From Syntrophales bacterium (GTDB taxonomy: Bacteria > Desulfobacterota > Syntrophia > Syntrophales > UBA2210): a DNA stretch of 64,000 bases. Each line of letters begins with the position of its first letter. The first letter of the stretch is position 1. The stretch is from positions 1,728,001 to 1,792,000 of the forward strand of contig CAXXKT010000001.1 in the NCBI GenBank assembly GCA_963662405.2. The letters run 5' to 3'. The notes under the pieces were generated by a model, which had not been told where the DNA came from, made no database searches, and saw only the letters and a list, made by a program, of their open reading frames with translations. The position numbers and the translations under genes are program-made. Shown in pieces: positions 2,582-64,000 of this stretch.

Positions 2582-3028
2582 CTATTCGACGGGCGGCAGG
2601 GAACCCTGGGGCGGTCCATAGGGAGGAGGTGCCCCTGCCCGCCGCCTCACCTCCCTGATCTCACCGAGGGTATACCCCTTCCTTGGGATGCGCAGGACCT
2701 GCTCCGGGTAGATGCGGCCGGGACTATCAATCTGATCTTTGTTGACGGTATAGATGAGCGGCCACATGAAAGGATCGTTAAAGACATCCTCGTATTCCGC
2801 GATCCACCAGAGGCATTCACCTTTTTTGACAAGGTGTTCCCTCGCGAGAGTATCTTCATCCGGCTCAGCGTCCTTGTTTCCTGTATCGGTCTTCGCTTGA
2901 AAAACCGGCGGTTCTTTCGCGGCGGCTGTCCGGAAAAAATCCCGGGCATATGCCCCTGAGTAAAGAAGGCCGAGAAAGACCGTCGAAGCGAGAATAGCCG
3001 AGAACAACACGCCTTTCTTCATCTCCAT
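2582..3028 (-). CDS. Exported LysM peptidoglycan-binding protein
   Basis: Signal peptide MKKGVLFSAILAS...; LysM HLVKKGECLWWIA...WPLIY..N...I..PGRIYPEQVLRIP; AAGGAGG RBS. Confidence 0.85.
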   Translation of the reverse strand: MEMKKGVLFSAILASTVFLGLLYSGAYARDFFRTAAAKEPPVFQAKTDTGNKDAEPDEDTLAREHLVKKGECLWWIAEYEDVFNDPFMWPLIYTVNKDQIDSPGRIYPEQVLRIPRKGYTLGEIREVRRRAGAPPPYGPPQGSLPPVE

Positions 3029-3121
3029 ACCCTCCTTCTTGTGTGGAATTCCATGACGACACAAAGGGTGCGTTTTTCGACGAATATACACGGCCCCTGT
3101 TAATAAGGGCGAAGGCCCGAC

Positions 3122-6290: not shown

Positions 6291-8834
6291 TCAGGGGAAT
6301 CTCACACCCTTTTCCGTTCCGGATGGGGGGCGGATAACCTCCAGTGTCTTTCCGTCCGTACGGATAACCACCGCCCCGTCCCGGTCCGTCCGCAGTACGG
6401 TTGTCCCGATCCGTCTGTATCGCTTGAGGACATCAGGGTGAGGAAATCCAAAGGTGTTATCCAATCCGCAGCTGATGACGGCGATTTCCGGACTGACCGC
6501 CCTGAGAAAGGGGGCGGTGCTGGAAGTCCTCCCTCCGTGGTGAGGTGCCATCAGGATATCGGCCCTCAGGCTGTGGCCGGAAGTGACGAGGCGGGCCTCG
6601 GCGGGTTCCGATATATCGGCCGGGAGGAGGATGCGTATCTTGCCGAAGGTGATCTTTATGACGATGCCGTTGTTGTTATAATCGAAACCGGAAAAATCGA
6701 TATCTCCCCGAGAGACCGGTCGCCGGGGATTCAGGATCCTGATTGAGGCACCTCCCACAATTCGCTCCGGTGTATCGGCACCGATGATCCTGTGAGTGAT
6801 CTTCTTTTTTTTGATGATTCCCTCCAGAAGTCTCCAGGATTCGTTCTCCGATTCCTGGCCGTTCGACCAGATCTCTCCCACCGTGAAATTGTCCGCGAGG
6901 AAGGGGAGGCCGCCGACGTGATCCTGGTCGGGGTGCGTAAGGACCATGATATCGATTTCCTTGATCTTCTTGCGCCACAGGTAGGGTCCCACCACGTGCC
7001 GCCCCAGATCGAAGCTCCTGTCATAGAAGCCGCCGCCATCCACCAGCATGACGCCCCCTCCGGGAAATTCAAGCAACGTGGAGCTTCCCTGCCCCACGTC
7101 GATGAAGGTTACTTCAAGGTGTCGGCGTTGAGCAGCGCACAGGTTTGTGTAGAAGGCGTCGGCGACGAAAAAGAAGACGATCAGTCCCAGGAGGAGCCCC
7201 AGCAGGGTGCGCTCCCTGATACGGTAAAACACGGTTAAGCGGTCGATCAGCGAGGGTGATGGCGGAATCACGGGAACCTCGGTTCCACGCGATCGCCACG
7301 TATCGACCAAACGGATTGCCGCCAGGACGCAGAGGTAGTAGAGGATAATCCCCCGTGGCGTCGGTGTCGTCACGGGGAGACTCGCGCAGGGAAATGACGA
7401 AAGGGCCTCGATGATAAAGGCGGCAATTCGGACGAAGAAAGAGGCGATTGCCACCAAAAGCGGTGCGATTGTGGAGAACGGGGCCGACACGATGAGCAGC
7501 ATCCCCACCGGGAGGACGACGAATCCGATAATCGGAATGGCAAACAGGTTGGATACGAGGGTGATGGTCGAGAGACGGTTGAAATAGAGGGCAATGAGAG
7601 GTGCGGTGCCGATCACGGCGGCGAGGCTGACCACGATAAGGAGCGCCACGGCATTTATAGCCCTCCGGCGAATTTCTCCCCCCGGTTGGGGGATCATACC
7701 GCCCAGCACGGGAGCCATGATCAGTATGGCGGCCACCGCTGTGAAGGAGAGTTGAAAGGAGACGTCAAAGAGTGACGTCGGGCTGATGATAAGGATTAAA
7801 AATGCGGCGAATGCCAATATATTGAAGAGATTTCGTTCCCTCCCGATCAGGAGGGCAAGGACGTAGCACAGGACCATGATCGCGGCCCGTATGGTTGATA
7901 TGCGAAGGCCCGCGATGAAGGTGTAGCCGATGACGGGGATGATGGAACAGATGGTTGACACCTTGAAGATATTGTATCTTAGGAGGAGGTATTCGGAAGA
8001 TCTCATGAAGATCCGTGCGATAGCGAAGGAAATGAGGGCTATGATTCCCACGTGAAGGCCCGATATGGCCAGGATATGAGATACTCCCGCCCGATTGAAC
8101 TGCTGAATGACATTTTCCGGGATCCCTTCCTTTTCCCCCAGTACAAGCGCTCGCAGAATTCCCCCCTCGGGTGAAGGAGCGTCATCCGTGATTCTTTTCC
8201 GGATGAGAGATCGATACCGCTCTATCATGGTTCTGAGGTGCCCTCCGGCGGTCTCTCGCATGATGACGATCTCCGAAGGCCTGCCGATATACCCGAGCAG
8301 GGAGATCTCCCGGAACAGAAGGTACCGCTTGTAGTCGAATCCACCGGGATTGTTGAAGCTGTGTGGATATCTCAGCGTCGTGTCCGCCCTGATGTAATTG
8401 CCATATTTGAATAGGTGATTGCTATCTTTGACGGAAAGGAGTATCTTTCCCGTCACGGGAACGGCGATTGCGTCTTTGATGATCCGTGAGGTATCGATGA
8501 CGAGTCGGGTCTTTTCCCCGACTGCCCGGGGAGGGGTGCAGACCAGCCCTTCAATGGTCATCCGGTCACCCCCTGCGTAATGTATTATATGATCTTTGCC
8601 GATAGATGGATAAATATACATCCCTATGTTGAGGATCCCCAGAAGAAAGAGGGACGCAAGGAGGCAGGGGAAGATACCATTCATCTTGCCTGAGGCGACG
8701 AGAAGGAGGAGTATCGCAAGAGTTGCCGCCAGTGCGGTGAGTGTCGGGATGCCGGGTATATGCGCATGGCTTCCGGCGGATATCCCTGCCATGAAGGCTG
8801 CCAGCAGGGGGATGATGGGGCTTCGCATCGACAT
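6291..8834 (-). CDS. comEC: DNA uptake competence protein ComEC/Rec2
   Basis: [25 protein letters not shown]-terminal MBL domain ([26 protein letters not shown]). Confidence 0.95.
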
Positions 8835-43968: not shown

Positions 43969-45382
43969 TCAGGAAACGACAGGCCAGAGGGTGTTCCACG
44001 GGCGTGCCTTCTCGTAGGCCCGCGAAGCCTGAAGCACCAGTTCGTCCCGGTAGCGGGGGCCGATGATCTGGAGCCCCGCCGGCATCCCTTTTTCCGTGAA
44101 TCCCGCCGGTACGGATGCGGCCGGATGCCCCGAGAGGTTGAAGGGATAGGTGAAGGCCACCGCGTCGAAGATGGAGGTGGGGCGGCCGTCTATCACTGTC
44201 GGGGGGGGGCCTCCGGCGGCAAAGGCCTCCGTGGGCATCGTCGGTGTGAGGAGGAGATCGAAGCGCTCGAAGAGGTTCCAGAGAATCCGGTTCTGCTCGG
44301 TTTTGACCTGTTGCGCCTCAAGGAGCTGCTCGAGAGTCAGTGAGCGGGCCTCTATGAGGGTTGCCACCAGTGCTCTCCCCATCTCACTGCCGTACTTTTC
44401 CAGGTATTCATGCATTGTCCCGTAGATGTTAAGGCTGAAGAGTTTCGACCAGGCGTCGACCACGTTGGGCATTGCCTCCTCCAAGAGGACCACGGTATGT
44501 CCCCATCTCTTCGAAGGCGTGGACCGCCTCCTCGATGCGGGCCATGACGGTCGCGTTGAACGGTCGCATACCCCAGGGTAGGGCTGAAGGCGATCGTGAG
44601 ACCTTGGGGGATGTTCTCCAGACTATGGAGGTACGAGATCCCCGGGTGAGGGAGCGAGTCGGGTGCCGACGGGTGGTGCCCCGCCGTGCAGTCCAGGTAA
44701 AGGGCCGCATCCTCCACGGTTCTCGTCAGGGGGCCGAGGGAGACGATGGGATTCATGTTGAGGATCGGGAGGGGCCCCATGGGGATCCTCCCGTAGGTGG
44801 GTTTGATCCCGAAACACCCCGTATAGGAGGCGGGAATGCGGATTGACCCGCCGCTCGTCGGAGCCGGACGCCACGGGGATCATCCCGGCGGCAACCGCCG
44901 CCGCCGACCCGCCGCTGGATCCACCCGACGTTCGCTCGAGATTCCAAGGGTTCCGAGTAACCCCGAAGAGGCGGTTCTTGCAGAATCCCGTCGATCCGAA
45001 TTCCGGCGTGTTTGGTCTTGCCCACCACGATGGCACCGGCCTCCCTGAGGCGTGCCACCTGCACTGAATCCTCTGTTGCAACGTTGTTTCTGAAAGGAAC
45101 GGAGCCGAAACTGGTTACCATCCCGGCGACATCCTCGAGGTCTTTCACACCGATGGGCAGCCCTGCGAGGGGGGGTGGGGTCGCCCCCGCCGCGATCGAT
45201 TTGGTGAGACCGCTCGCCTCATTCAGTGCCCGATCGGCATCTATTGAGACGAAGGCGTTCAGGGAAGGGTTTGCCTTCTCTATCCGTCTCAGCGTATCTT
45301 CCATCACCTCCAGAGGTGTGAATTCCCCCGACATGATACGACCAATGAGTTCCCGCGCCGATGTGTACGAGATCAATGACAT
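43969..45382 (-). pseudogene. Amidase-signature enzyme with four +1 frameshifts (pseudogene or assembly error)
   Basis: [18 protein letters not shown] and [13 protein letters not shown] after removing single extra bases at ~45012, 44855, ~44550 and ~44502; corrected ORF is 469 aa with no internal stop. Confidence 0.85.
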
Positions 45383-51078: not shown

Positions 51079-52266
51079 GTGGCTGGACCTTTGCGGGGAC
51101 TCAAGATTTTGGATTTCACCACGCTCCTTCCGGGGCCGTACGCGACTATGGGACTCGCGGATATGGGGGCCGATGTTCTTCGGATCGTCTCCGGTTCCCG
51201 CCCGGACCTCACCGCCCTTGCCCCGCCTTTCATCCCGGGGACGGATATCTCGTTCGCCACGGCTTGTCTTGGGCGGGGGAAGCGATGCATGACGTTGAAC
51301 CTGAAGGACCGTCGTGCCGTTGAAATTATTCATCGTCTCTTGGCGCGATACAACATCCTGATCGAGCAGTTCCGCCCCGGTGTGATGGAGAAGCTCGGAC
51401 TCGGGTACCATGCTCTCAGGGACGTCAATCCCGCCCTCATCTATTGTTCCCTCACGGGGTACGGCCAGACGGGGCCGTACCGTGGCCGGGTGGGGCATGA
51501 TATCAACTACCTGGCGCGCTCGGGGCTCATGGCGTACTCGGGGAGAAAGGAGGGGGGACCCACCCTCACGGGAATGCAGATCGCCGATGTCGCTGCCGGT
51601 TCCAACAACGCCGTCATCGGGATCCTCGCCGCGTTTATCGCCCGCCATGAAACGGGGAGGGGACAGCAGGTTGATGTCTCCATGACCGACGGCGTCATCG
51701 CCTTCAACGCCCTGGCGGGGAACGCCTGCCTGGTGGAGGAGGAGAACAATCCCGGTCGCGAGTCTTTCCTCCTGAACGGGGGGTCTCTCTACGATTTCTA
51801 CGAGACGATGGGTGGAGGATACATCAGCCTCGGGGCCCTCGAGCCGCAGTTCTTTGCCGCCTTCTGCGAGGGGATCGGCCGGCCCGACCTGGCGGCGGGA
51901 GGGATCTCTCCCGCGAATGTCGGGGAGGTCAAGGAAGAGATCCGGGCAATCATCCGGACAAAGACGCGCGACGAATGGACGGCGATATTCGAAGGGACGG
52001 ATGCCTGTGTCGAGTCGGTCCTGACCCTCTCCGAGGCCTTGGGGAGTGACCATGCCCGTGAGCGATCCCTGGTGATTGAAGCCGATCTCCCGACAGGGGG
52101 GACGGTGAGACAGATTGCCCACCCCATCACCTTTTCGGAGACGAGACAGGAATACCGGTCGGCCGGAGTTCACGCCGGGGTGCATACGAAAGAGGTCATG
52201 CGCGAGCTGGGATATGCCGACGCCGAGATAGATGCATGGGAAGAGGAGGGGCTTTTCAGCTCTTAA
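51079..52266 (+). CDS. CaiB/BaiF family CoA-transferase, alpha-methylacyl-CoA racemase-like
   Basis: GPLRGLKILDF, EQFRPGVMEKLGLG, GHDINYLA, QIADVAAG. Confidence 0.88.
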   Translation: MAGPLRGLKILDFTTLLPGPYATMGLADMGADVLRIVSGSRPDLTALAPPFIPGTDISFATACLGRGKRCMTLNLKDRRAVEIIHRLLARYNILIEQFRPGVMEKLGLGYHALRDVNPALIYCSLTGYGQTGPYRGRVGHDINYLARSGLMAYSGRKEGGPTLTGMQIADVAAGSNNAVIGILAAFIARHETGRGQQVDVSMTDGVIAFNALAGNACLVEEENNPGRESFLLNGGSLYDFYETMGGGYISLGALEPQFFAAFCEGIGRPDLAAGGISPANVGEVKEEIRAIIRTKTRDEWTAIFEGTDACVESVLTLSEALGSDHARERSLVIEADLPTGGTVRQIAHPITFSETRQEYRSAGVHAGVHTKEVMRELGYADAEIDAWEEEGLFSS

Positions 52267-52766
52267 ACATTCGGGATGTCCCCTTCTCCCGACCGGTCGG
52301 GAGAAGGGGCATATCTCATGACGTACTTGAGGGTATCTTCCTTGCAGGCTTCAAACCCGAGTCGCCGGTAGAGGGTGACCGCCGGATTGACCTTGTCAAC
52401 CTCAAATAAGACCTCTCTGTCGGTCGCATCCGCTTCACGGATGATCTCCCTCAGTATGCGGGAGCCGATACCTTTATTCCGGTAGGCCGGCAGCAATGAG
52501 AGATTGGTTACCCGGATACTCTGAAAATCAGAGTTGATCTGCAGCCTGCCGATCCGTTTGGATGCATGGACGATGACATGGTCTTCGGAAGAGGGGTATC
52601 GACTCTGGACGGACTGCTCAAAAGCGATGAACTGCTGTGCCATCAATCGTTCCCGGGCCTGTCGCGGCCAGGAGCCAGCGTGCAACTCGGCTGTTTTGAC
52701 CTCGCCGAAAAGCATCAAAAGAAAATCCGCGTCACGCTCGTCTCTCTTCCTCAGGCAAACGTCCAT
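52263..52766 (-). CDS. GNAT N-acetyltransferase linked to tail-collar genes
   Basis: LLPAYRNKGIGSRIL acetyl-CoA motif, NPAVTLYRRLGF; start 13 bp after the tail-collar stop. Confidence 0.85.
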   Translation of the reverse strand: MDVCLRKRDERDADFLLMLFGEVKTAELHAGSWPRQARERLMAQQFIAFEQSVQSRYPSSEDHVIVHASKRIGRLQINSDFQSIRVTNLSLLPAYRNKGIGSRILREIIREADATDREVLFEVDKVNPAVTLYRRLGFEACKEDTLKYVMRYAPSPDRSGEGDIPNV

Positions 52767-52779
52767 GTGCCGACATCCC

Positions 52780-53304
52780 CTACGGCCGTATCGGATAGGA
52801 GCCAGAGAGGCAGATGATGTAATGCAGACATGTCCAGGGCGGCATATTCTCATGGGAGTGTAACTTCCCTTCGTCGTTTATCATATCGGCCTTCATTGTC
52901 GGATTTCCCGTTGAATCGGAACCGTACCCGGGGCTTGTTTTTGTGGCAAATAAATTATTCTGCGGTGTATTTTTGAGCTGCCGCGCCGATGACACCGTAT
53001 CACACTGAACGGCATGGCTGTGGGCCGGTACGGTTAATTGGGTCAGTGGCACCTGCTCATATCCGCCCTTATCGCCTTGGTGACGATATGAGGTGCCCGA
53101 GCTCTGTCCCGTCCCCAACACGATGCGTCCGCGCAGATCGGGAAGATTAAACGTTGTCCTTCCGTCACCGCCGAATTGGGTGCCGATGATCGAATACAGC
53201 GCAGGATTTTCAGTGATGGAAAGAGACTGCCCGTCGCAGAATGCCCAGTTTGCCGGCGGATAGGGGCCGGCAAAATATTTGACCTCGCCTATGAATCCTT
53301 CCAT
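52780..53304 (-). CDS. Phage tail-collar domain protein (microcystin-dependent protein-like)
   Basis: FIGEVKYFAG..PP.NWAFCDGQ.L......ALYSIIGT.FGGDG.TTFNLPDLRGR; HSH; HENMPP; AAGGAGG RBS. Confidence 0.92.
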   Translation of the reverse strand: MEGFIGEVKYFAGPYPPANWAFCDGQSLSITENPALYSIIGTQFGGDGRTTFNLPDLRGRIVLGTGQSSGTSYRHQGDKGGYEQVPLTQLTVPAHSHAVQCDTVSSARQLKNTPQNNLFATKTSPGYGSDSTGNPTMKADMINDEGKLHSHENMPPWTCLHYIICLSGSYPIRP

Positions 53305-53342
53305 GATTACCTCCTTCCTATAAACGGTACCGGTGATGATGG

Positions 53343-53870
53343 TTAATCTCTCGGAGGCCACAGCCCTTCCGTGCACATGATGTACTGTAAACAACCCCAG
53401 GGGGGCATGTTATCGTGCGGTTGTCCGCCGCCGGATTCGTTGAGCATATCGGTTTTCATCAGAGGATTCCCTGTTTCATCGGCTGCATACCCCGTGCTTC
53501 CCTCTAATAGCGCCGGAAGATTGCCTTGAGGCGTGTCTTGGAGTTGTCTTCCTTGAGAGGTGATGTCGCATTTTACCGTATGTGTATGCTGGGGCATCTG
53601 AGCTGTTGTGAGGGTGACATTTTCAGCGCCGCCACGCTGACCGGCGATACGGGGTGTCAGACCGGGGCCTGTGCCGGCTCCCACCGGGACCCGTCCGCGC
53701 AGATCGGGGACGCCGAACGTTGTCGTGCCATCTCCGCCGAACTGGGTGCCTATTAAAGCGTAAAGAGACTGGTATTGAGCGACCGAAAGTAGCTGCCCAT
53801 GACAAAAGGCCCAGTTCACGGGCGCAAACGTTCCTGCAAACATCTTGATTTCACCGAGGTATCCATCCAT
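53343..53870 (-). CDS. Phage tail-collar domain protein, paralogue
   Basis: YLGEIKMFAGTFAPVNWAFCHGQ...FGGDGTTTFGVPDLRGR; HTH; HDNMPP; AAAGGAG RBS. Confidence 0.92.
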   Translation of the reverse strand: MDGYLGEIKMFAGTFAPVNWAFCHGQLLSVAQYQSLYALIGTQFGGDGTTTFGVPDLRGRVPVGAGTGPGLTPRIAGQRGGAENVTLTTAQMPQHTHTVKCDITSQGRQLQDTPQGNLPALLEGSTGYAADETGNPLMKTDMLNESGGGQPHDNMPPWGCLQYIMCTEGLWPPRD

Positions 53871-54182
53871 AACGTTCTCCTTTCTGTTGCGTGATTTGTT
53901 TTTTGTGAAACAGGAAACTGAATCCCTGAAAAGAATAGCTGTCCAAGCAGTATCGAGGACTATCGACCTGGATCCGGAAGATACAGCGTGTGAAATCAGA
54001 GGATCTCATGGCACTGCAAGAGGTCGCGAAAGAGATTTCACTGAAAATGTGGAACGGAATCGAAAGAGTTGTTGAAAAAAACAACTCACTATGGAATTAT
54101 ACGCTCCATATGCGATCCATACAACAAAAATATACGCACAGATCTTTGTGCCGATACTCTCGGTCAGAGAGGAGCAAGAACC

Positions 54183-54425
54183 ATGTCTGGGATGAACACA
54201 CATGTTCGAGCATTTTTCGGTTGCATGATCTTCTCTTCCATTTTCTTTGTGAGCGACATCCATGCCCGGGCATATTTCTTCTATAGCAGTGCCGACCCCT
54301 GGATATTCGTCCGGGGTGGGTCGGACGGGACGAATTCTCAATTCGTTTCCGCGGCATCGGATAACAAGATAAAAACCATCTCCACGAGCGACACTTCCTT
54401 GGGCGAGATATGTCGTAATGAGTGA
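54183..54425 (+). CDS. Possible small exported protein or remnant (80 aa)
   Basis: AGAGGAG RBS; hydrophobic N-terminus ending in ARA; no recognised domain. Confidence 0.3.
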   Translation: MSGMNTHVRAFFGCMIFSSIFFVSDIHARAYFFYSSADPWIFVRGGSDGTNSQFVSAASDNKIKTISTSDTSLGEICRNE

Positions 54426-54501
54426 CTCAATCGGTCTTTTGAATGATTCGCATAAATAAGCACATCAGGTTTCTCCAGCACATAATAGTGAGGGGAAGAA
54501 G

Positions 54502-57500
54502 ATGAATATGAATCGTGCACACCCATGCTGTACATTGAAAAGACATCTTTTCCATATATTTATCATCCTCATTCTCAACGCATCCCTGGCCGGTTATGCC
54601 TTTGCCTATCTCGATCCCGGCACTTTCAGCTCTCTCGGCACATTCAATCCCTCCAGTAACGTCGTCGTCAATATGACCACACGGTCGATGACCGGCGGGG
54701 TTACCGCGACCGGTGTTATGTCAGGAGACATACTCGTTTTTACCTTTGACAGCTTTAGCCTGGGGGCTGGTTACAGCATCTCCTTTTCGAATGTGGCTGA
54801 TAATGATGACAAGATCGCCTTTCTCTCAAAAGGGGATATGACAATAAGTGGAAATATTTACGCAAACGCCTCGGGTACCGCTCCCGGGCCTGGAGGGAGG
54901 AGAGGTGGCACTTCTCAACCGGAAGTCGGTCAGGGCACCGGTGGAGGGCAAGTTGGCTTAGACGCAGGCGATGACGACGGAGCCGGCGGCGGCGGGTTTG
55001 GCGGCGCCGGTGGTGCACACGGGTATGGCGCCCCCGGAGGAACAACATATGGAGACCTTGCCACGGCCCTCGACGGGGGAAGTGGTGGGGCCCGCTCCGC
55101 ATATTCGAGTGATACCAGTGCCGGTGGCGGTGGCGGTGGCGGCGCACTGGAACTGGGGGCGCTCGGTACGACAACCCTGAATAATGGCTGTAATATAGAA
55201 GCGAAAGGGGCGGCAGGTTCAAATGCCGATTTAACACCTTGCGGAGAAGATGGTGATGGAGGAGGCAGCGGAGGCGGCATACTGATTCACGGAAATGTTG
55301 TCACGTTCAATTCCGGGGCCAATGTCAATGCATCGGGCGGCAACGGCGGTAATGGAGATAATGATTCAAATTGCGGGCAGACATCTGGCACCGGAGCCGG
55401 TGGCGCTGGTGGCGGCGGCGGCGGCGGACGTATACGGATCGCTTACAATGGAAGCGGGACAAATAGCGGATCTGCTGTTGCCGCTAAGGGAACGGGGGGC
55501 ACTGATCCGGGACCGTATGGGAGTTATCCGGGTGGAGATGGCTCAGCAGGCGTTGTGCAATTCGTCCAGGACTCAAACGTGCCGGTGACCAGTTCAGGTC
55601 CCGAGATATCCGTATATGGAAATTCGGTATCGATCAACGATGGAGACACCACACCCTCCGTGAGTGACGACACGCATTTTGGCGATGTCGATAAGGACAG
55701 CGGTACGGCAACGCATACCTTTACGATAAAAAATACCGGCCCGGCCACACTGACCATATCGGGCGGGCCGAATTATGTCTCGGTTGATAATGCTGTTTTC
55801 TCGGTCACGTCACAGCCCTCTGATGTGAGCCTCGAACAGAACGAGACGACCACATTCTCCATTCAATTTGATCCGGACGGCATCGGTATTGAGACGGCGA
55901 ATGTATCCTTTGCCAATAATGACGATAATGAGAACCCCTTTAACTTTGTCATAGAGGGGAATGGGACGTCCGCTGCAAGCCTGTATCTCGATGGCCGTGA
56001 CTTTACCTCGCTCGGCTCTTTCAATCCTTCCTCTGATGTGACCGTTAATATGTCCACAGGCGCCATGACGGGGGGACTGTCGGCAACCGGGACGGTTTCC
56101 AATGGCATACTGGTGTTTACCTTCGATGATTTTACCCTTGTCTCTTCGCGGAATATCAATTTCACAAACACGGAGAATTCGACCAACAAGATAGCATTCT
56201 TATCGCTCAGTAACATGACACTGTCGGGGGCGATCAACGGGAGCGGTTCGACATACACACCCGGGCCCGGCGGTGGTGCCGGTGGTACGGCAAAACCCTC
56301 GGACGGGACCGGCGCCGGTGGCGGCGGAGGTAGTGAGGATGGAGCCGGCGGAGCCGGGTTCGGTGGTGCCGGTGGGGACAGTGGTAATGGTGTGGGGGGC
56401 GGTTCGACCTATGGTGACCTGGCGGTATCTCTCAGCGGCGGCAGCGGTGGCGCCAGGTCGGAGTACTCAAGCACGGGAAACTATGGTGGTGGCGCCGGTG
56501 GTGCCGTGCAGCTTGGCGCCCTGGGGATCATCACCCTTAATTCCGGCGCGAGCATCAATGCCAATGGGGTGGCCGGTCCTGCGAGTACCGGTGTTGACGC
56601 CGATGGAGACGGCGGCGGCAGCGGTGGCGGTATCCTGATCCATGGAAAAACGATACGGCATAATAGCGGGGCAACCATATCGGCGAATGGCGGAAACGGT
56701 GGTGGTACCGCCGGAGCGGGTGACGGCATCGGCGGCGGCGGTGGCGGTGGCGGAAGGGTGCGGCTCGTGTATCATACATCGGGTGCCGGTGATATCGTCC
56801 AAACAGGGACGATTACCGTGAGCGGTGGTATGGGGGGTGCGGATGTGACTCCGGGAGAGGCCGGTGCATCCGGAACCTCGGCCTGGGCGTCGGATGCGAA
56901 TGTACCGATCGGTGGCCCGGAAATCAACATCAAGGGCAACGGTGTCTCCATTGCCGACGGTGACACAAGTCCATCAACCGGTGATGACACGGATTTCGGC
57001 AGTGTTGATGTAACCTCGGGGTCGGATGAGCATACCTTTACCATAGAGAACCTTGGTGCGGAGACATTGAATCTGACCGATGCGAGTCCCTACGTGGCGA
57101 TCACCGGGCATACCGCGGATTTCACGCTGACGTCAACTCCGTCAGCTGCCATATCAGACGGGAGCACAACCCCCTTCGCGATCACCTTCGATCCCACGGC
57201 GGGGGGGACGCGTGAGGCGACGGTCAGCATCGCCAACGACGACTCGGACGAGAACCCTTATAACTTCGATATCCGGGGGACCGGGACCTATACCGCCCCG
57301 ACGACCCAGGCCCAGACGGTCACCTTTCCGAATATCGAGGCGACCACCATGACGATCGGGTGGACGAACGGGAACGGCACGGCACGGGTGGTATTTCTCT
57401 ATAAGGGAGGGAGTTTAGAGACCGCGAGCCCCGTTGACGGGACCACCTATACGGCGAATACGGCATTCGGCGCGGGGACGCAGATCGGCGCCACCGGCTG

Positions 57501-60500
57501 GTACTGCGTCTATAACGGGACGGGGACGTCGGTAGCCGTGACGGGCCTGATGCCGGGGGCGACCTACCGGGCGATGGTGTGCGAGTACAACGGGGATGCG
57601 GGGTATGAGTCCTATGTGACCGATACGGCGACGGGGAACCCGACGAATCAGACGATGGTCACCGTCATGATCAACGAGGTTGACGCCGACACCCCCGGCA
57701 CCGACACCCTGGAGTTTATCGAACTGTACGACGGCGGGGTTGGCACCGTCAGCCTGGACGGGCTGGTGCTGGTGTTCTATGACGGTACCGACGATCAGTC
57801 ATATAACGCAGCCCCCTACGCGAATGCGATCGATCTGGACGGTTACTCGACGGATGCGAACGGATACTTTGTGATCGGCAATGCGGGCGTGTCCGGTGTG
57901 GATATGACCTTTTCGGATAATGCCCTGCAGAACGGGGCGGACGCCGTTGCCCTGTATGTGGGGGACGGGACGGATTTTCCCGATAATACCCCTGTAACAA
58001 CGGTCAATCTTATTGATGCCCTCGTGTATGATACCGACGACGCGGATGATGCGGGACTCCTGACCCTGGTCTTGGCGGGGGGACAGATCAACGAGAGCGG
58101 GCGGGGAGGCAGCACAGGGCATTCCAACCAGCGGATACCGAACGGCACGGGGGGCTTGAGGAACACGACGGCGTACACCCAGCAGCCCCCGACGCCGGGT
58201 GCCGAGAATAACGCCTATCCCGAGATCACCTCCGCTGCGTATGACTATGGGACGAATCAGCTGGTGGTCACCGGCCGGTATCTGGTCGAGAATGATGGCG
58301 CGGACAACGACGTGGATGTGTCACTTCTGACCGTGACCGGTGAAGGGGGCGGCACGTACACCCTCGCGGACTCCGCTGATGTCGAAATCACCTCCGATAC
58401 GCAGTTCACCGTCACCCTGAGCGGGGCCGACATACCACAGGTGGAGGCGCTTCTGAACAAGGACGGGACGAGTGCGGACGATGATACCGTCTACAACCTC
58501 GCGGCGGCGGACAACTGGATGCCCGGCGCGCCCGCGGCGGACGATATCGCCGATGCGACAAACGGGATCACGGTCAGCAACTATACCGTCCCCATGATTA
58601 CCTCATGCACCTACGATGCCACGAGCGGCCAACTGGTCGCCACGGGAACGAACTTTGTCGTCAACAGCGGCCTGGCGAACGACGTCGATACGTCGCTCAT
58701 CACCTTCACCGGTCAGGGGAGTGGCACCTATACCCTGACCGACACGGGTGATGTGGAGATCACCTCGTCCACCCAATTTACCGTGACCGTGAGCGCGACG
58801 GACCGGCCCCATGTGAACGGACTCCTTAACCGGGCGGGGACACAGTCGGCGGATACCGTCCTCTATAACCTTGCCGCGGCGGACAACTGGATGCCGGGTG
58901 CGCCTGCGGGGAACGACACAGCGGACGCGACCTCCGGGATCACCGTCAGCAATGTCCAGGCCCCGACGATCACCGAGGCCGCGTATGATTACGGGACGGA
59001 TACCCTGACCGTGACGGGGGCGGCATTTGTCGCTCAATCCGGGGTAGCGAACGATGTGGACATCACGAAGCTGACCGTAACCGGCGAGGGGGGCGGCACC
59101 TATACGCTGGCGACTTCGAACAATCCCGAGATCGCCTCATCCACCCAGTTCACCGTCACCCTGAGCGGTGCGGACATACCGCATGTGGAGTCGCTCCTGA
59201 ACAAGGACGGGACGAGCGCGGCCGACGGGCCGGCCTACAATCTTGCCGCTGCGGACAACTGGATGCCCGGCACGGACCCGTCGGCGGACATCGCCGATGG
59301 GGCGAGCGGGATCACGGTGAGCGGCTATGCCGTCCCGCAGATCACCTCGGCCGTGTACGACGCCGGGACGGGGCAGTTGGTGGCAACGGGGACGAACTTT
59401 GTCGTCAACAGCGGTGCGTCCGATGTGGACGCCTCGCAGTTCACTTTCACCGGTCAGGGGAGTGGCACTTATACCCTCACCGACACGGGCGATGTGGAGA
59501 TCACGTCAGCTACCCAGTGTACGGTGACGTTGAGTGCGACGGACCGGTCCCAGGTGAATGGGCTCCTCAACAGGGCCGGGACACAGTCGGCGGATGCGGT
59601 CACCTATAATCTTGCCGCGGCGGACAACTGGATGCCGGGGTCACCCGCGGGGAACGATACGGCGGATGGGACCACCGGGATAACCGTCAGCAACGTCCAG
59701 ACCCCGACGATCACTGAGGCGACATATGACGCCGACACGGGCGTATTCACGGTGACCGGGACGAATCTGCGGGGGAATGCCGGTGCGGCGAATGATATCG
59801 ATGTCTCCCGATTGACCGTGACGGGCGAAGGGGGAAACTACACCATATCGGATGCGATTGCGGATGTAGAGATCACCTCGTCCACCGAGTTCACCTTTAC
59901 CGTCACGGGGACGGACAAGACCCAGGTGGATCTCCGGCTCGATCTCTTCGGGACACAGTCGAGCGGCGGGACGACGTACAATCTTGCCGCAGCCGATAAC
60001 TGGCTGGCCGCGGCCGATCCGGCCGCCGACATCGCCGATCTTACCAATAACGAGATTACCGTTACCGTCAATCCGCGGATCACGAGCGCGACCTATAATG
60101 CCGCCACCGGCGTCCTGGTGGTGACGGGATCCAATATCCGGGAGAACGGCGGGGGGTCCGATATCGATGCCTCCCAATTGACCTTTACCGGTGAAGGGGA
60201 TGCGACCTATACGCTCACCGATACGCCTGACGTGAACCGGGACAGTTCCTCCCAGTTTACCGTCACCTTGAGCGCTGTCGACAGGGCAGCCGTCAACCGG
60301 ATCATGAACAAGAACGGGACCGCATCGACCGGCGGGACGGCCTATAACCTTGCCGCGGCGGATGACTGGTGCACCAATGTCACGGCCGGCAATACCGCCG
60401 ATCCGACCGGCAACGGGATCACCGTCAGCAACGTGCCGCTGCCGATGGTCACCTCCGCCACGTACAACGCGGGGACGGGTGTGCTGGTCGTGACCGGTAC

Positions 60501-62049
60501 GGGACTGGTGAAGAGGGACGGTGCGGCCAACGACATCGATGTCTCCCAATTGACCGTTACCGGCGAAGGGGGAGAGACCTGTACGATCCAGAACACGGCC
60601 GGTGTCGAGATCACATCCGATACGCAATTCACGGTGACCTTAAACGAGACGGACCGGTCCGCCGTCAACCGGATCCTGAACAAGAACGGGACGAGCTCCA
60701 CGTCGGGGACGACGTATAACCTTGCCGCCGCGGAGGACTGGGCGGCAGGGGCGGATCCGGCGGTCGATGTTGCCGATGAGGCGGGGAACGGGATTACGGT
60801 GAGCGGTGTGACGGCGCCGGTGATCACCTCGGCCTCGTATCAGTGGAGCACCGGGGTATTGACCGTAGCGGGGACGGGCTTTCTCAAGAAGGCGGGCATC
60901 GCCAACGACATCGATGCCTCGCGATTGACATTCCGGGGTGAGGGAGGGGTGACTTACACCCTCGTGGGCAGCGCGGATGTTGACATCACCTCCGATACGG
61001 AGTTTTCGGTGACCCTCGACGCGACGGACAAGGCCGCCGTGAATCCGCTTCTCAACAAGGCGGGGACATCATCGGAGGATGACACGGTCTACAACCTTGC
61101 CGGGGCGGAAGACTGGGCGGCGGGGGCGGACCCGGCCGTGAACGTCGCCGACGCCACCACCCCGATTACCGTGGGTGGGTTTACGGTCACCATCTCCGGG
61201 ACGGTGACGGACGGGGTGAATCCCATCGAAGGGGCGACCATCACCTTCTCCCATGACGGTCATACGGAGCAGACCGCCGCCGACGGGACCTACTCGTATG
61301 TTGTCTCCGCCGGGATCACGACGACCGTGATACCGACGCATCCGGGGTACGCCACCTGGGACCCGGCGAATCGGACACTAACGAATGTAACCACCGACCA
61401 GCTCGGTCAGGACTTCACCGCCACCTCCGACACGGACGGGATTCCCACGACGGAAGAGAACGGTCCGGACGGGACCGATCCTGCCTATGACGGGAACAGC
61501 GACGGGATTCCCGACGGCAACCAGCCCCATGTGGCCTCATTCCATACGGCGGACGGAGAGAACTATGTCACTCTCGCCGCTCCCGACGGGACACTCCTCT
61601 CGGGTGTTCAGGCCCTCCCCGCGCCGGATAACGGGACGTTTCCGCATACCACCTACTTCCCCTACGGCCTGTTCCGGTTTACGGTGACCGGCGTGACACC
61701 GGGGGGAGCCACGGTGGTGCAACTCTTCCTCTCCGGGGAGACGACGATCGAGTCATACTGGCGGTACGGTCCGGAGCCGGGCGATCCTACCATGCATGCC
61801 TATGAGTTCATGCTGGACGGGGGGACGGGTGCCGAGATCGCGGGGCATGTCGTCACCCTGCACTTCATCGACGGCCGGCGGGGGGACGATGATCTTGACG
61901 GCGGGAACGGGGTGATCGTCGACGACGGCGGCCCCACTGCCGCGACTCCGGTTATTCCGGTCCTGACAAAGAATGGAATAGTCGTCTTTGTAGTCATTCT
62001 GTCCATTCTTGCCTGTCTGGTTATCCGGTCACGGCGACAGCCGGCCTAA
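54502..62049 (+). CDS. 2515-aa secreted modular surface protein/adhesin with IPTL-CTERM-like anchor
   Basis: Signal peptide (AFA|Y); 2x[beta domain + Gly-rich + Ig-like]; FN3-like; lamin-tail-like (INEVDAD...EFIEL...PTPG..N); 8 tandem repeats; carboxypeptidase-regulatory-like; choice-of-anchor U-like; IPVL + TM + RSRR tail. Confidence 0.9.
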   Translation: MNMNRAHPCCTLKRHLFHIFIILILNASLAGYAFAYLDPGTFSSLGTFNPSSNVVVNMTTRSMTGGVTATGVMSGDILVFTFDSFSLGAGYSISFSNVADNDDKIAFLSKGDMTISGNIYANASGTAPGPGGRRGGTSQPEVGQGTGGGQVGLDAGDDDGAGGGGFGGAGGAHGYGAPGGTTYGDLATALDGGSGGARSAYSSDTSAGGGGGGGALELGALGTTTLNNGCNIEAKGAAGSNADLTPCGEDGDGGGSGGGILIHGNVVTFNSGANVNASGGNGGNGDNDSNCGQTSGTGAGGAGGGGGGGRIRIAYNGSGTNSGSAVAAKGTGGTDPGPYGSYPGGDGSAGVVQFVQDSNVPVTSSGPEISVYGNSVSINDGDTTPSVSDDTHFGDVDKDSGTATHTFTIKNTGPATLTISGGPNYVSVDNAVFSVTSQPSDVSLEQNETTTFSIQFDPDGIGIETANVSFANNDDNENPFNFVIEGNGTSAASLYLDGRDFTSLGSFNPSSDVTVNMSTGAMTGGLSATGTVSNGILVFTFDDFTLVSSRNINFTNTENSTNKIAFLSLSNMTLSGAINGSGSTYTPGPGGGAGGTAKPSDGTGAGGGGGSEDGAGGAGFGGAGGDSGNGVGGGSTYGDLAVSLSGGSGGARSEYSSTGNYGGGAGGAVQLGALGIITLNSGASINANGVAGPASTGVDADGDGGGSGGGILIHGKTIRHNSGATISANGGNGGGTAGAGDGIGGGGGGGGRVRLVYHTSGAGDIVQTGTITVSGGMGGADVTPGEAGASGTSAWASDANVPIGGPEINIKGNGVSIADGDTSPSTGDDTDFGSVDVTSGSDEHTFTIENLGAETLNLTDASPYVAITGHTADFTLTSTPSAAISDGSTTPFAITFDPTAGGTREATVSIANDDSDENPYNFDIRGTGTYTAPTTQAQTVTFPNIEATTMTIGWTNGNGTARVVFLYKGGSLETASPVDGTTYTANTAFGAGTQIGATGWYCVYNGTGTSVAVTGLMPGATYRAMVCEYNGDAGYESYVTDTATGNPTNQTMVTVMINEVDADTPGTDTLEFIELYDGGVGTVSLDGLVLVFYDGTDDQSYNAAPYANAIDLDGYSTDANGYFVIGNAGVSGVDMTFSDNALQNGADAVALYVGDGTDFPDNTPVTTVNLIDALVYDTDDADDAGLLTLVLAGGQINESGRGGSTGHSNQRIPNGTGGLRNTTAYTQQPPTPGAENNAYPEITSAAYDYGTNQLVVTGRYLVENDGADNDVDVSLLTVTGEGGGTYTLADSADVEITSDTQFTVTLSGADIPQVEALLNKDGTSADDDTVYNLAAADNWMPGAPAADDIADATNGITVSNYTVPMITSCTYDATSGQLVATGTNFVVNSGLANDVDTSLITFTGQGSGTYTLTDTGDVEITSSTQFTVTVSATDRPHVNGLLNRAGTQSADTVLYNLAAADNWMPGAPAGNDTADATSGITVSNVQAPTITEAAYDYGTDTLTVTGAAFVAQSGVANDVDITKLTVTGEGGGTYTLATSNNPEIASSTQFTVTLSGADIPHVESLLNKDGTSAADGPAYNLAAADNWMPGTDPSADIADGASGITVSGYAVPQITSAVYDAGTGQLVATGTNFVVNSGASDVDASQFTFTGQGSGTYTLTDTGDVEITSATQCTVTLSATDRSQVNGLLNRAGTQSADAVTYNLAAADNWMPGSPAGNDTADGTTGITVSNVQTPTITEATYDADTGVFTVTGTNLRGNAGAANDIDVSRLTVTGEGGNYTISDAIADVEITSSTEFTFTVTGTDKTQVDLRLDLFGTQSSGGTTYNLAAADNWLAAADPAADIADLTNNEITVTVNPRITSATYNAATGVLVVTGSNIRENGGGSDIDASQLTFTGEGDATYTLTDTPDVNRDSSSQFTVTLSAVDRAAVNRIMNKNGTASTGGTAYNLAAADDWCTNVTAGNTADPTGNGITVSNVPLPMVTSATYNAGTGVLVVTGTGLVKRDGAANDIDVSQLTVTGEGGETCTIQNTAGVEITSDTQFTVTLNETDRSAVNRILNKNGTSSTSGTTYNLAAAEDWAAGADPAVDVADEAGNGITVSGVTAPVITSASYQWSTGVLTVAGTGFLKKAGIANDIDASRLTFRGEGGVTYTLVGSADVDITSDTEFSVTLDATDKAAVNPLLNKAGTSSEDDTVYNLAGAEDWAAGADPAVNVADATTPITVGGFTVTISGTVTDGVNPIEGATITFSHDGHTEQTAADGTYSYVVSAGITTTVIPTHPGYATWDPANRTLTNVTTDQLGQDFTATSDTDGIPTTEENGPDGTDPAYDGNSDGIPDGNQPHVASFHTADGENYVTLAAPDGTLLSGVQALPAPDNGTFPHTTYFPYGLFRFTVTGVTPGGATVVQLFLSGETTIESYWRYGPEPGDPTMHAYEFMLDGGTGAEIAGHVVTLHFIDGRRGDDDLDGGNGVIVDDGGPTAATPVIPVLTKNGIVVFVVILSILACLVIRSRRQPA
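58219..61179 (+). repeat. Eight tandem ~370-bp (121-125 aa) intragenic repeats
   Basis: Units start at 58219, 58591, 58963, 59335, 59704, 60073, 60442 and 60817; consensus P.ITSA.Y...TG.L.VTG...ND.D...LT.TGEG..TYTL...VEITS.TQF.VTL...LN..GT.S...YNLAAA..W. Confidence 0.95.
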
Positions 62050-62431
62050 GGGCAACCGCATCGGTTCATGCGCGCAGAGGGGATCTCCCTCCTGTGGCTC
62101 GCACCCCGGGCGGGTGGGCATGCCGGGGTGTGCTGCAATCCGAAGCCCGCTGCCCCGCCGCTGCACGGGGCGGCGAAGGATCTTCCCGGGTTACCGTGAT
62201 GAATGGAGCGGGCAGATCAGAAAACGGTTGCGTATTCCAGCAAGTTATGTAATCTACGACAGAATCTGTGCCGTTCCGGCCGGGACCGGTACCATCTCGG
62301 TTGTAACCGCCGATACGGAGAACGGAACGCACAAAGGGCGGGCCGTCCGCGCCCTGTGGCGCTTGATGGCATCGCTGCGGCTGTGCACGCGGCGATGCAA
62401 TATGAGAAATCACACGAAGGGGTCATACGTT

Positions 62432-63613
62432 ATGAGACATGCAGCACGGGTCGTGATCATTCTGTCGTTCATCCTTTTTGGGGCGGATACCGGCTCTTCC
62501 GAGGAGACATCCCTGACCCTCCCCACCGCCGATTCCACCAGCAGCTTCAGGGTGTACAATAGCGCTTCGGCCAATCTGTTCACGGTGAGGGGCGATCTTA
62601 AAGTGGGGATCAGGCAGCCGAATCCGCGCGCCGAGCTTGAGGTCGGGGGGACCGACGGCATCCTCTGCACCGGGACCATGAACAGCGGCACGGTCCGGGC
62701 CCTGGGGGCCGGCGTGCGGTTTCACTGGTATCCGCGGAAGGGGGCCTTCCGGGTGGGAATGGCCGAGAGCTCGTACTGGGACGACAACGGGACATCGACC
62801 CCGAACCTGGCCCTCTATTCCATTGCCATGGGATACCAGCCGCGGGCGACGGGGGTCGCCTCCACCGCCATCGGCGCGTACAACCGAGCGACAGGGGATT
62901 ACTCGCTGGCCCTGGGTTCGTATAACCAGGCCACCGCTTCCCACGCCGTCGCCATCGGGACCCAGGCCTTTGCCACCGGGATCTACTCTTTTGCCCTGGG
63001 CTGCGGCGCCGACACCAACGGCAAGGACGGCTCTTTCGTCATCGGGGATGATACGTATTTCCAGACGGCATACGCCAGCAACGACAATCAGCTCACCATG
63101 CGCTTCTCCGGGGGGACCGTGGCTGACGATTCCTCCGCCCCTGATTACGTCGCGGGCGAGCGGAAAGCCTACCGGTTCTGGACGTCCTATCCTGACTGTG
63201 CCGCAGGCGTCTACATGAACCACGGCGACAGTTCGTGGCGCTCCTATTGCAGCCGGGACCTCAAGGAGAATTTCGCGCCGGTGGACGGCGAGGAACTCCT
63301 CGGCAAGATCCGTGATCTCCCCGTTACGCAGTGGAACTACAAGGCGGTGGACCCCTCCGTGAAGTTCATCGGTCCCGTGGCGGAGGATTTCTGGGACGCC
63401 TTCCGGCTCGGCGGGACCGATAACAAGGGGATCAGCAACTTTGCCATCGCCGGGGTGAATATGGCCGGGGTGAAGGCCCTTGAGAAGCGGACCGGGGACA
63501 TGAAGGAAGAAATGGCGGAGATGAAGGGGGAGATCGATCGGTTGCGGGCCGAGATCGCGTCCCTCAGGGCTCAGCTCGCCGCCGCCTGCGGCCCCCGTCT
63601 CGCGGCGCGGTAG
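62432..63613 (+). CDS. Secreted tail-fibre-like protein: YadA-head-like repeats, peptidase S74 chaperone, coiled coil
   Basis: Signal-like N-terminus; 14-aa repeats (ATGVASTAIG, ATGDYSLALG, ATASHAVAIG, ATGIYSFALG); CSRDLKENF...WNYK...IGPVAEDF; heptad C-terminus; alternative start 62402. Confidence 0.85.
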   Translation: MRHAARVVIILSFILFGADTGSSEETSLTLPTADSTSSFRVYNSASANLFTVRGDLKVGIRQPNPRAELEVGGTDGILCTGTMNSGTVRALGAGVRFHWYPRKGAFRVGMAESSYWDDNGTSTPNLALYSIAMGYQPRATGVASTAIGAYNRATGDYSLALGSYNQATASHAVAIGTQAFATGIYSFALGCGADTNGKDGSFVIGDDTYFQTAYASNDNQLTMRFSGGTVADDSSAPDYVAGERKAYRFWTSYPDCAAGVYMNHGDSSWRSYCSRDLKENFAPVDGEELLGKIRDLPVTQWNYKAVDPSVKFIGPVAEDFWDAFRLGGTDNKGISNFAIAGVNMAGVKALEKRTGDMKEEMAEMKGEIDRLRAEIASLRAQLAAACGPRLAAR

Positions 63614-63684
63614 CACGAACCGGGCGGGTTCGCCCTGCGATAAAGGCATATGCACACCGAACAGACACGAGGAAAAGACGGCTT

Positions 63685-64000
63685 GTGAAAAAGATACCCT
63701 TCGTCTTTGCCGCATTCCTGATGTTCCTATGGATCGTCCCGTCGGTCGGCGCGGACGGCCTGTCGATCTGCTCAGGCACGGTATTTTCGCTCGGCTCTTC
63801 CACATTCAGCCTGAGCGGCGACTGGTGCAACGCCGGGATCTTTACGGCAGGCTCGGGGACGGTTGTCTTCAACGGAGCGAGCGGTAACCAGACCATCACC
63901 GATCCATCCGGTGAGACCTTCTATCATATGACGGTGAGCAAGACAGTCGGCGACGTCCTCCTGTATACGGATGTAACCGTCAACGGGACACTCACCGTTA
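63685..64000 (+). CDS. Secreted beta-rich protein, 5' part only (runs off the window)
   Basis: Manual translation from GTG: MKKIPFVFAAFLMFLWIVPSVGADGLSI...GDWCNAGIFTAGSGTVVFNG...VTVNGTLTV; GAGG RBS; open to window end. Confidence 0.8.
   Translation, partial: MKKIPFVFAAFLMFLWIVPSVGADGLSICSGTVFSLGSSTFSLSGDWCNAGIFTAGSGTVVFNGASGNQTITDPSGETFYHMTVSKTVGDVLLYTDVTVNGTLTV

Follow-up and report, generated by a model that had tools for sequence, protein, structure and literature searches.

A locus of collar, acyltransferase and surface-protein genes was analyzed at the end of a 64,000-nucleotide stretch of DNA from a Syntrophales bacterium (assembly GCA_963662405.2, contig CAXXKT010000001.1, positions 1,728,001 to 1,792,000 of the forward strand), referred to below as the window. 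Two genes for collar proteins and one gene for a GNAT acyltransferase lie on the minus strand, divergent from the gene of a 2515-aa anchored protein (the stalk), which is followed by the genes of an S74 fibre and a 1427-aa anchored protein. The original prediction for this DNA had joined all of them into one surface-appendage system. Its description of a minus-strand collar, collar and GNAT unit divergent from plus-strand signal-peptide genes was confirmed for every gene; an 80-aa stub open reading frame (ORF) was absent from that account. The locus has the following features.

52263-52766, minus strand: GNAT gene, 167 aa, PF13508 at E 1e-10 (Pfam), without a signal peptide
52780-53304, minus strand: collar2 gene, 174 aa, PF07484 at E 1e-27, without a signal peptide
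53343-53870, minus strand: collar1 gene, 175 aa, PF07484 at E 4e-28, without a signal peptide
53871-54501: intergenic region between the divergent arms, 45% G+C, with a homologous counterpart in locus L007
54183-54425, plus strand: 80-aa stub ORF, signal peptide and first residues of what appears to be a former adhesin head
54502-62049, plus strand: 2515-aa stalk protein, secreted, C-terminally anchored and adhesin-like
62402-63613, plus strand: S74 fibre gene, 403 aa, YadA_head and Peptidase_S74, likely start at 62432
63685-67968, plus strand, ending beyond the window: 1427-aa anchored Ig-rich protein, conserved partner of the S74 gene

The minus-strand genes are separated by 13 bases (GNAT to collar2) and 38 bases (collar2 to collar1). 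The genome, which is 100% complete, contains just two collar matches, both at this locus, and the nearest collar relative is found in L007, a Syntrophaceae record (81%). The genes fall into two modules, one formed by the collars, the GNAT and the stalk, the other by the S74 fibre and the 1427-aa protein. Tandem signal-less collars and a family GNAT beside a large surface protein, by which the cassette is defined, are all present, and the locus is a minimal version of it with two collars, one GNAT and one stalk.

Both collar proteins are stand-alone phage-fibre-tip units built of a collar, an HxH needle, a variable head and a return strand. They are 53% identical to each other and score 96-98 bits on PF07484 (cut-off 24), and collar1 matches T4 gp12 (1ocy) at E 3e-7. 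The motif PxHxH was found in 153/172 cellular units, the two collars of the locus among them; by analogy with T4 gp12 and gp37, it presumably forms a metal site. Units of at least 130 aa (172) were kept for a quick tree with weak deep branches, shorter ones being dropped. In this tree collar1 grouped with the first and second genes of the collar triplets in L009 and L010, and collar2 with the third gene (support 99); the same split was seen in the doublet of L008. A complex of two collar1 chains and one collar2 chain was modeled with a score of 0.88, compared with 0.00 for the best of three controls, and the runs showed 98% contact agreement and a pLDDT of 92. Among solved complexes, 51 of 78 attained the mark set for this score; among mismatched pairs, 2 of 108 did. 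The two collars are thus predicted to fold into one three-chain fibre tip in a 2:1 ratio. In the virophage DSLV2, the products of adjacent small collar genes co-purify as a heterotrimer, and binding to lipopolysaccharide (LPS) is reported (PMC12724248), so collar paralogues of this kind can co-purify as a heterotrimer.

The stalk begins with a signal peptide, continues with Gly-rich heads, two choice-of-anchor D domains, an fn3-like domain, an LTD domain and eight repeats, and ends with a choice-of-anchor U domain and a membrane anchor. Its parts, all on the plus strand, are as follows.

54607-55593: Gly-rich head 1, residues 36-364, predicted short beta-helix and polyglycine-II bundle
55975-56916: Gly-rich head 2, residues 492-805, 53% identical to head 1
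56917-58218: choice-of-anchor D, fn3-like and LTD segment, common to stalks beside the closest collar cassettes
58219-61188: eight YNLAAA-type repeats of 123-125 aa each, predicted beta-sandwich with one helix
61432-62046: choice-of-anchor U, IPTL-like sorting signal and transmembrane helix (hydrophobic helix, basic tail)

Head 1 was modeled with a pLDDT of 94 from 56 aligned sequences. Its beta-helix part resembles the EtpA secretion domain (Z 12.2, root mean square deviation 3.0 over 161 aligned residues) and its polyglycine-II part a springtail antifreeze protein (Z 8.5, 3.8 over 118). Foldseek returned no match at E 0.001 and the Atlas only unnamed clusters, and no phage gp38-type polyglycine protein was among the matches listed. 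The head domain has 394 representatives at E 0.001 and belongs to no Pfam family; it is common at the N terminus of other secreted proteins and often stands alone with a PEP-CTERM-type tail (4 of 6 displayed). For the repeat, the best structural match had a Z of 3.7; there is no clear solved match, which does not amount to a new fold. No part of the stalk matched a phage family in PHROGs. The IPTL-CTERM label that had been given to the C terminus fits its sequence pattern and the adjacent choice-of-anchor U domain; the IPTL-CTERM model itself was not reached at E 0.1 by either C terminus of the locus, with 17 other matches in the genome. Two exosortase-family genes are present in the genome; the XrtH-like gene, at 67.9, stays below its cut-off of 86. 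Over 848 bases in the choice-of-anchor U and sorting-signal region, the stalk gene shows 85% identity with the 3' end of the 1427-aa gene. An isolated fragment at G000:C1:677402-677779, 65-68% identical to the C-terminal part of the stalk (choice-of-anchor U domain and anchor), may be a remnant of another stalk-type gene.

The association of collars and stalk was examined from both sides. When species genomes were searched for collars first, 192 collar ORFs turned up in 78 loci, many of the loci being shortened by contig ends. Three collar units were present in 44 loci, one in 18, two in 10 and four or six in 6, and the family GNAT was found in 28/78 and DUF6916 in 21/78. When all 70 ORFs of at least 750 aa and 114 chosen smaller ORFs were scanned for partners, at least 27 of the 78 loci had an ORF of at least 750 aa bearing Ig, cadherin, adhesin-type or export-tag Pfam domains. 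Five routes of export or anchoring were represented among the partners: type IX secretion (L009, L038, L078), RTX (L035), autotransport (L046, L059, L062), S-layer binding (L040) and exosortase (L077). The same divergent layout, a choice-of-anchor D stalk opposite two to three collars, was found in L007-L010, with the GNAT in all three whose contigs extend far enough. These four loci share stalk parts with the 2515-aa protein at 61-83% identity (83% to L007 over residues 807-1029; 65% to L010 over 806-1634), and they are also the tree neighbours of both collars. The layout is kept across three phyla, including Bacteroidota and Ignavibacteriota relatives, and transfer of the cassette between phyla is likely.

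The repeat-first sample, 72 metagenome loci and G180, was picked by the stalk repeat alone. Collars were present in 27/73 of these loci, in 17 of the 31 with at least 4 kb upstream and in 8 of 20 clusters at 80% identity. For scale, a collar1 match occurs anywhere in 10 of 300 genomes of the phylum, and any collar match in 2 of 60 relatives, one of these being a long phage-like fibre. The earlier reading had proposed a check for collars beside YNLAAA-type repeats, and they were present in these proportions. Together with the L007-L010 layout and the one-chain fusions described below, this result ties the collar and GNAT arm to the 2515-aa protein. This part of the one-system proposal stood, and we regard the linkage as well supported and quite probable; the inclusion of the S74 fibre did not stand (see below).

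Upstream of the stalk gene, the intergenic DNA aligns with that of L007, and the alignment extends through 80 codons at the start of the L007 adhesin gene, whose product carries a DUF5050 propeller; a stop codon follows at 54425. From this alignment we infer that the 80-aa stub may be the scar of a head replacement: the former head would have been lost and new heads placed at the start of the gene, with stalk and collar arm retained.

The GNAT of the locus belongs to a cassette-specific family, the conserved positions of which were examined. Its RNKGIG motif is, we assume, the acetyl-CoA motif. Beyond that, its family matches were generic ones, all below the NCBIfam cut-offs. Of 86 loci with signal-less collars, 38 had GNAT or DUF6916 next to them, compared with 0 of 16 loci with signal-bearing collars; two unclear loci had neither. 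With 1.5 kb of flank, the counts were 32/61 for signal-less versus 0/12 for signal-bearing loci. In nine further loci of the phylum, GNAT or DUF6916 was adjacent in 5 of 6 signal-less versus 0 of 3 signal-bearing cases; one of the latter three has a GNAT match 3.2 kb away that looks generic. Signal peptides were called with a hydrophobicity heuristic, which miscalled L083 (phage-like) and L065 (which looks signal-bearing). The presence of GNAT or DUF6916 with signal-less and its absence with signal-bearing collars point to the collars, and not the stalk, as the probable client of the GNAT.

Other modifying enzymes are frequent in collar loci, namely Asp/Asn hydroxylase, PhyH, formyltransferase and sulfotransferase-like ORFs, the last label coming from a motif that we presume to be diagnostic. 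ORFs with this label also occur just upstream of repeat-bearing stalks or beside collars in L096, L119, L133, L134, L154 and L177, with or without collars. In L099, L100, L104, L112 and L173, a signal-bearing single collar is followed by an approximately 325-aa protein with Sel1-like repeats (by eye), and a large repeat protein comes next in four of them. In Acaryochloris, the collar genes AM1_3688-3690 appear together with AM1_3687 and the acetyltransferase AM1_3686 in one expression table, where they are known by their labels (PMC11633204).

In other bacteria collars and stalk parts are joined in one chain. L077 is a single ORF with a signal peptide, three collar units, two stalk-type repeats, a choice-of-anchor U domain and IPTL-CTERM. 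Among 8000 candidates, 744 proteins matched its collar region at E 1e-40, and the best 120 of them carry IPTL or PEP-CTERM, RTX, Hint, DUF4214, dockerin or Ig tails; 4 contain the repeat with anchor U and 3 contain anchor D. The order of the fused parts was read with separate hidden Markov models for the N part (collar to HxH) and the C part (return strand), which replaced a noisier motif count. The order C-N-C-N-C-N was found in 92 of the best 120 and N-C-N-C-N in 21, and all 120 end in N, the HxH half; a tail of more than 60 aa follows the collar block in 109. In gp37 both chain ends belong to the collar (PMC12724248). The fusions end in the HxH half instead, so their chains are opened within a shortened variable head, with the needle end leading into the stalk. 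This circular permutation suggests that the collar end faces outward, away from the cell. Permuted collar triplets are also fused to a C-terminal Hint_2 domain in P0125, P0127, P0129-P0133 and others; Hint_2 could release the triplet or attach it to something.

We propose that a collar trimer docks on the anchored stalk as a binding knob and that the GNAT acylates or chaperones the collars, the S74 fibre and the 1427-aa protein being separate. As a whole, we give this scheme slightly less than an even chance. Two collar1 chains and one collar2 chain would assemble as one fibre tip, as the model predicts. The trimer would be displayed at the cell surface on the stalk, an arrangement seen in other bacteria as gene fusions and extended here to free collars. 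Free trimers would likely dock by their head end, with the collar end pointing away from the cell. The co-occurrence of GNAT and collars suggests that the enzyme may act on them, and a polysaccharide ligand would be a guess by analogy to DSLV2. In a wider form, which is rather unlikely to hold in full, bacteria of many phyla may use a domesticated phage fibre tip as a plug-in knob. The knob would be signal-less, licensed by its own acyltransferase for export or docking, clipped onto giant surface proteins of any secretion route and mounted backwards relative to phage, its collar end outward, with fusions and signal-bearing single collars as hard-wired, GNAT-free versions.

Several observations weigh against this proposal. 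The collars have no signal peptide and no export partner was found. The closest stalks (L089, L090/L160, L091) have no collar in the flanks examined, so the cassette is optional; for L089, L091, L093 and L131 the collar search covered the fetched flanks only. The stalk repeat occurs in just 4 of the 78 collar loci, and there is no one domain common to all partners that would mark a docking site. A recent rearrangement, suggested by the stub at 54183, could have broken the link between the two arms. The trimer score of 0.88 may reflect likeness to solved gp12 and gp37 trimers, homotrimers being no part of the comparison. With respect to the GNAT, 48 of 86 signal-less loci have neither GNAT nor DUF6916, the signal-peptide heuristic makes miscalls (L083, L065), and many signal-bearing loci are close kin. 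DUF6916, present in 21/78 collar loci, was unmatched in the genome in a search run without a positive control. The 120 fusions were found with a permuted query, which biases them toward a uniform order, and L031 is an unpermuted triple without a tail.

The collar trimer might instead stay inside the cell and, acting as an adaptor or chaperone, recruit modifying enzymes to the adhesin before the latter is exported. The lack of signal peptides on the collars fits such a role, as does the frequency of modifying enzymes in collar loci (GNAT here, sulfotransferases and hydroxylases elsewhere), and the many export routes of the partners need not be shared by a cytoplasmic helper. An extracellular position of the domain is indicated, however, by single collars with signal peptides and by the hundreds of forms that are fused, anchored or RTX-tagged, and the absence of the GNAT from these extracellular forms ties the enzyme to the collars more than to the stalk. 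We consider an intracellular trimer unlikely.

A trimer released free, by vesicles or lysis, could bind surface polysaccharide as a lectin, a cell bridge or a phage-receptor mask, co-regulated with the adhesin without binding it. In agreement with such a role, collar1 is 37-38% identical over 92-96% of its length to minor tail proteins of phages (299 records), LPS binding is reported for the heterotrimer of DSLV2, and many collar loci have no recognizable large protein in the DNA examined. Tethering is favoured over release by the fusion to the same repeat and anchor and by the divergent layout conserved in three phyla, and free release appears distinctly improbable.

The docked trimer of our proposal leaves the S74 fibre to a module of its own. 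The fibre is secreted and has a YadA-like head matching UspA1/YadA (E 2e-5 to 3ntn), a C-terminal S74 chaperone domain (31.9 bits, cut-off 22) and a C-terminal coiled coil. None of the 78 collar loci and none of the 73 repeat loci contained S74, while the same model found 5 of 5 control genes. In G025, the S74 gene (83%) is directly followed by an orthologue of the 1427-aa protein (74%), and G025 has no collar match. In L091 a gene with the leader of the S74 gene and a different body precedes the same 1427-aa-type partner. The genome has two more S74 genes, one followed by the gene of a 2077-aa and one by that of an 891-aa anchored protein, with no collar nearby. In the S74 loci L165-L167 of relatives no such partner follows in the DNA examined, and L168 ends at the S74 gene; the partner is thus missing in some relatives, and the pairing is common, not universal. 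The placement of the fibre in the same system as the collars was not borne out by these data.

An appendage built by collars, GNAT, stalk, S74 fibre and 1427-aa protein together, as originally predicted, draws on the adjacency of the genes, the common strand of the three plus-strand genes, the 85% identical 3' ends of the two large proteins and the order in L091, where stalk genes are followed by the S74-leader gene and the 1427-aa-type gene. The collar and repeat loci without S74, the collar-free pair in G025 and the two other S74 genes before different anchored proteins oppose it, and we judge it very improbable. More plausibly, the S74 protein would be a trimeric fibre held by its anchored neighbour, lying beside the first module in a surface-gene cluster with shared 3' ends. 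The fibre has 244 relatives, mostly cellular-looking, with 2 weak phage matches; the named ones are mostly from Ignavibacteria and Bacteroidota. At its S74 site (63248-63265, plus strand) the Lys is present, with a Cys five residues before it. This Cys occupies what we take to be the position of the catalytic Ser; of 120 family members examined, 117 could be matched here, 91 of them with Cys and 26 with Ser. Judged by these residues, the domain is possibly a Cys-Lys self-cleaving variant.

A secreted-fibre gene directly upstream of an anchored protein recurs at G000:C1:706438-714369, G000:C1:1997807-2002234, L164:7573-11839 and L091:13883-17012. The N terminus of the anchored partners looks like a short beta-rich cap. 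Such pairs are possibly an undescribed fibre-plus-holder system.

The phage content of the locus was assessed with PHROGs for 51 ORFs in the window and downstream. Families for capsid, terminase, portal, sheath, tube, baseplate and integrase proteins were all absent, as were head and packaging families, in agreement with the original prediction for the window. Tail-family matches within the locus were limited to the two collars. Far upstream, an ORF at 2585-3091 (minus strand) partially matches an endolysin PHROG (E 4e-9) and an ORF at 6294-8834 (minus strand) a tail protein PHROG (E 1e-40, residues 570-834), both without phage neighbours. The sheath family PF04984 and VipB PF05943 had no match in the whole genome, while positive controls were matched. 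Past base 64000, where a prophage or injection locus would have spoken against the earlier proposal, those ORFs that were inspected by eye look like housekeeping genes. These results place the locus outside prophages, prophage remnants, contractile injection systems, type VI secretion systems and tailocins. As for domesticated phage-tail parts, the collars and the S74 domain are indeed phage-like; the stalk, its heads and the head of the fibre resemble cellular adhesins. That the collars and the S74 gene are prophage leftovers beside adhesin genes by chance is hardly credible and already largely refuted: both are phage families, collar1 matches tail PHROGs and the locus is patchy among relatives, but the ORFs are intact, phage core genes are absent, the non-phage context is conserved with phage tail neighbours identified only in L083, and the few weak phage matches of the S74 protein stand against its many cellular-looking relatives.

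In its working, the cassette would resemble an adhesin of the tip-on-stalk kind with a part taken from phage; it does not belong with prophages, injection systems or DSLV2-type tails. With the T4 gp12 tip (PDB 1ocy, 1pdi, 5iv5) and the gp37 tip it shares the collar domain, the HxH motif and the predicted trimer, but its collars are stand-alone 175-aa genes of a cell genome that encode two different chains, without shaft or virion. The DSLV2 tail is viral, capsid-mounted and encoded by three genes, with the head proposed as the binding end (PMC12724248), whereas the present locus is cellular, has the only two collar genes of the genome, lacks capsid genes and includes a GNAT and a stalk; judging from the fusions, its orientation would be the reverse. 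Relatives of the collars carry the COG4675 "microcystin-dependent protein" or Pfam Collar label, which gives no function, and the papers found contain table entries only in the parts seen (PMC11633204, PMC3174227, PMC5579227). Like exosortase-anchored IPTL-CTERM and choice-of-anchor proteins, the stalk has a signal peptide, anchor D and U domains and a hydrophobic C terminus with a basic tail, in a genome with exosortase genes; unlike them, its C terminus stays below the IPTL-CTERM model, and they have no collar partner in the literature searched. YadA-like repeats and an S74 domain connect the fibre to trimeric autotransporter heads (UspA1, YadA) and S74 chaperones, but it has no detected beta-barrel anchor domain and is paired with an anchored partner gene.

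No account of the collar cassette was found among the matches listed in the literature searched, which excluded subscription papers and supplements. New here are the collar doublet, the fusion geometry, the GNAT pattern and the head-swap scar. The cassette occurs across many phyla under a function-free label. If the proposal is true, adhesins would quite generally be armed in this manner, with a tip of phage origin, and a trimer lacking signal peptides would have to leave the cell by a route not yet explained. Ligand screens could start from the fused forms, which are ready single-chain proteins and also predict how docking is arranged.

A scan for promoters and terminators at the locus gave counts at the shuffle level (6 versus 5.6 and 9 versus 8.3). 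Downstream of the 1427-aa gene, a PEP-CTERM-type gene, a LuxR-type regulator and transport and metabolic genes were read by eye in part of the stretch. Elsewhere in the window, an amidase-like gene (by eye) is split over three frames at 43969-45382 on the minus strand (44753-45382, 44352-44780 and 43969-44493) and appears to be frameshifted or an assembly error.

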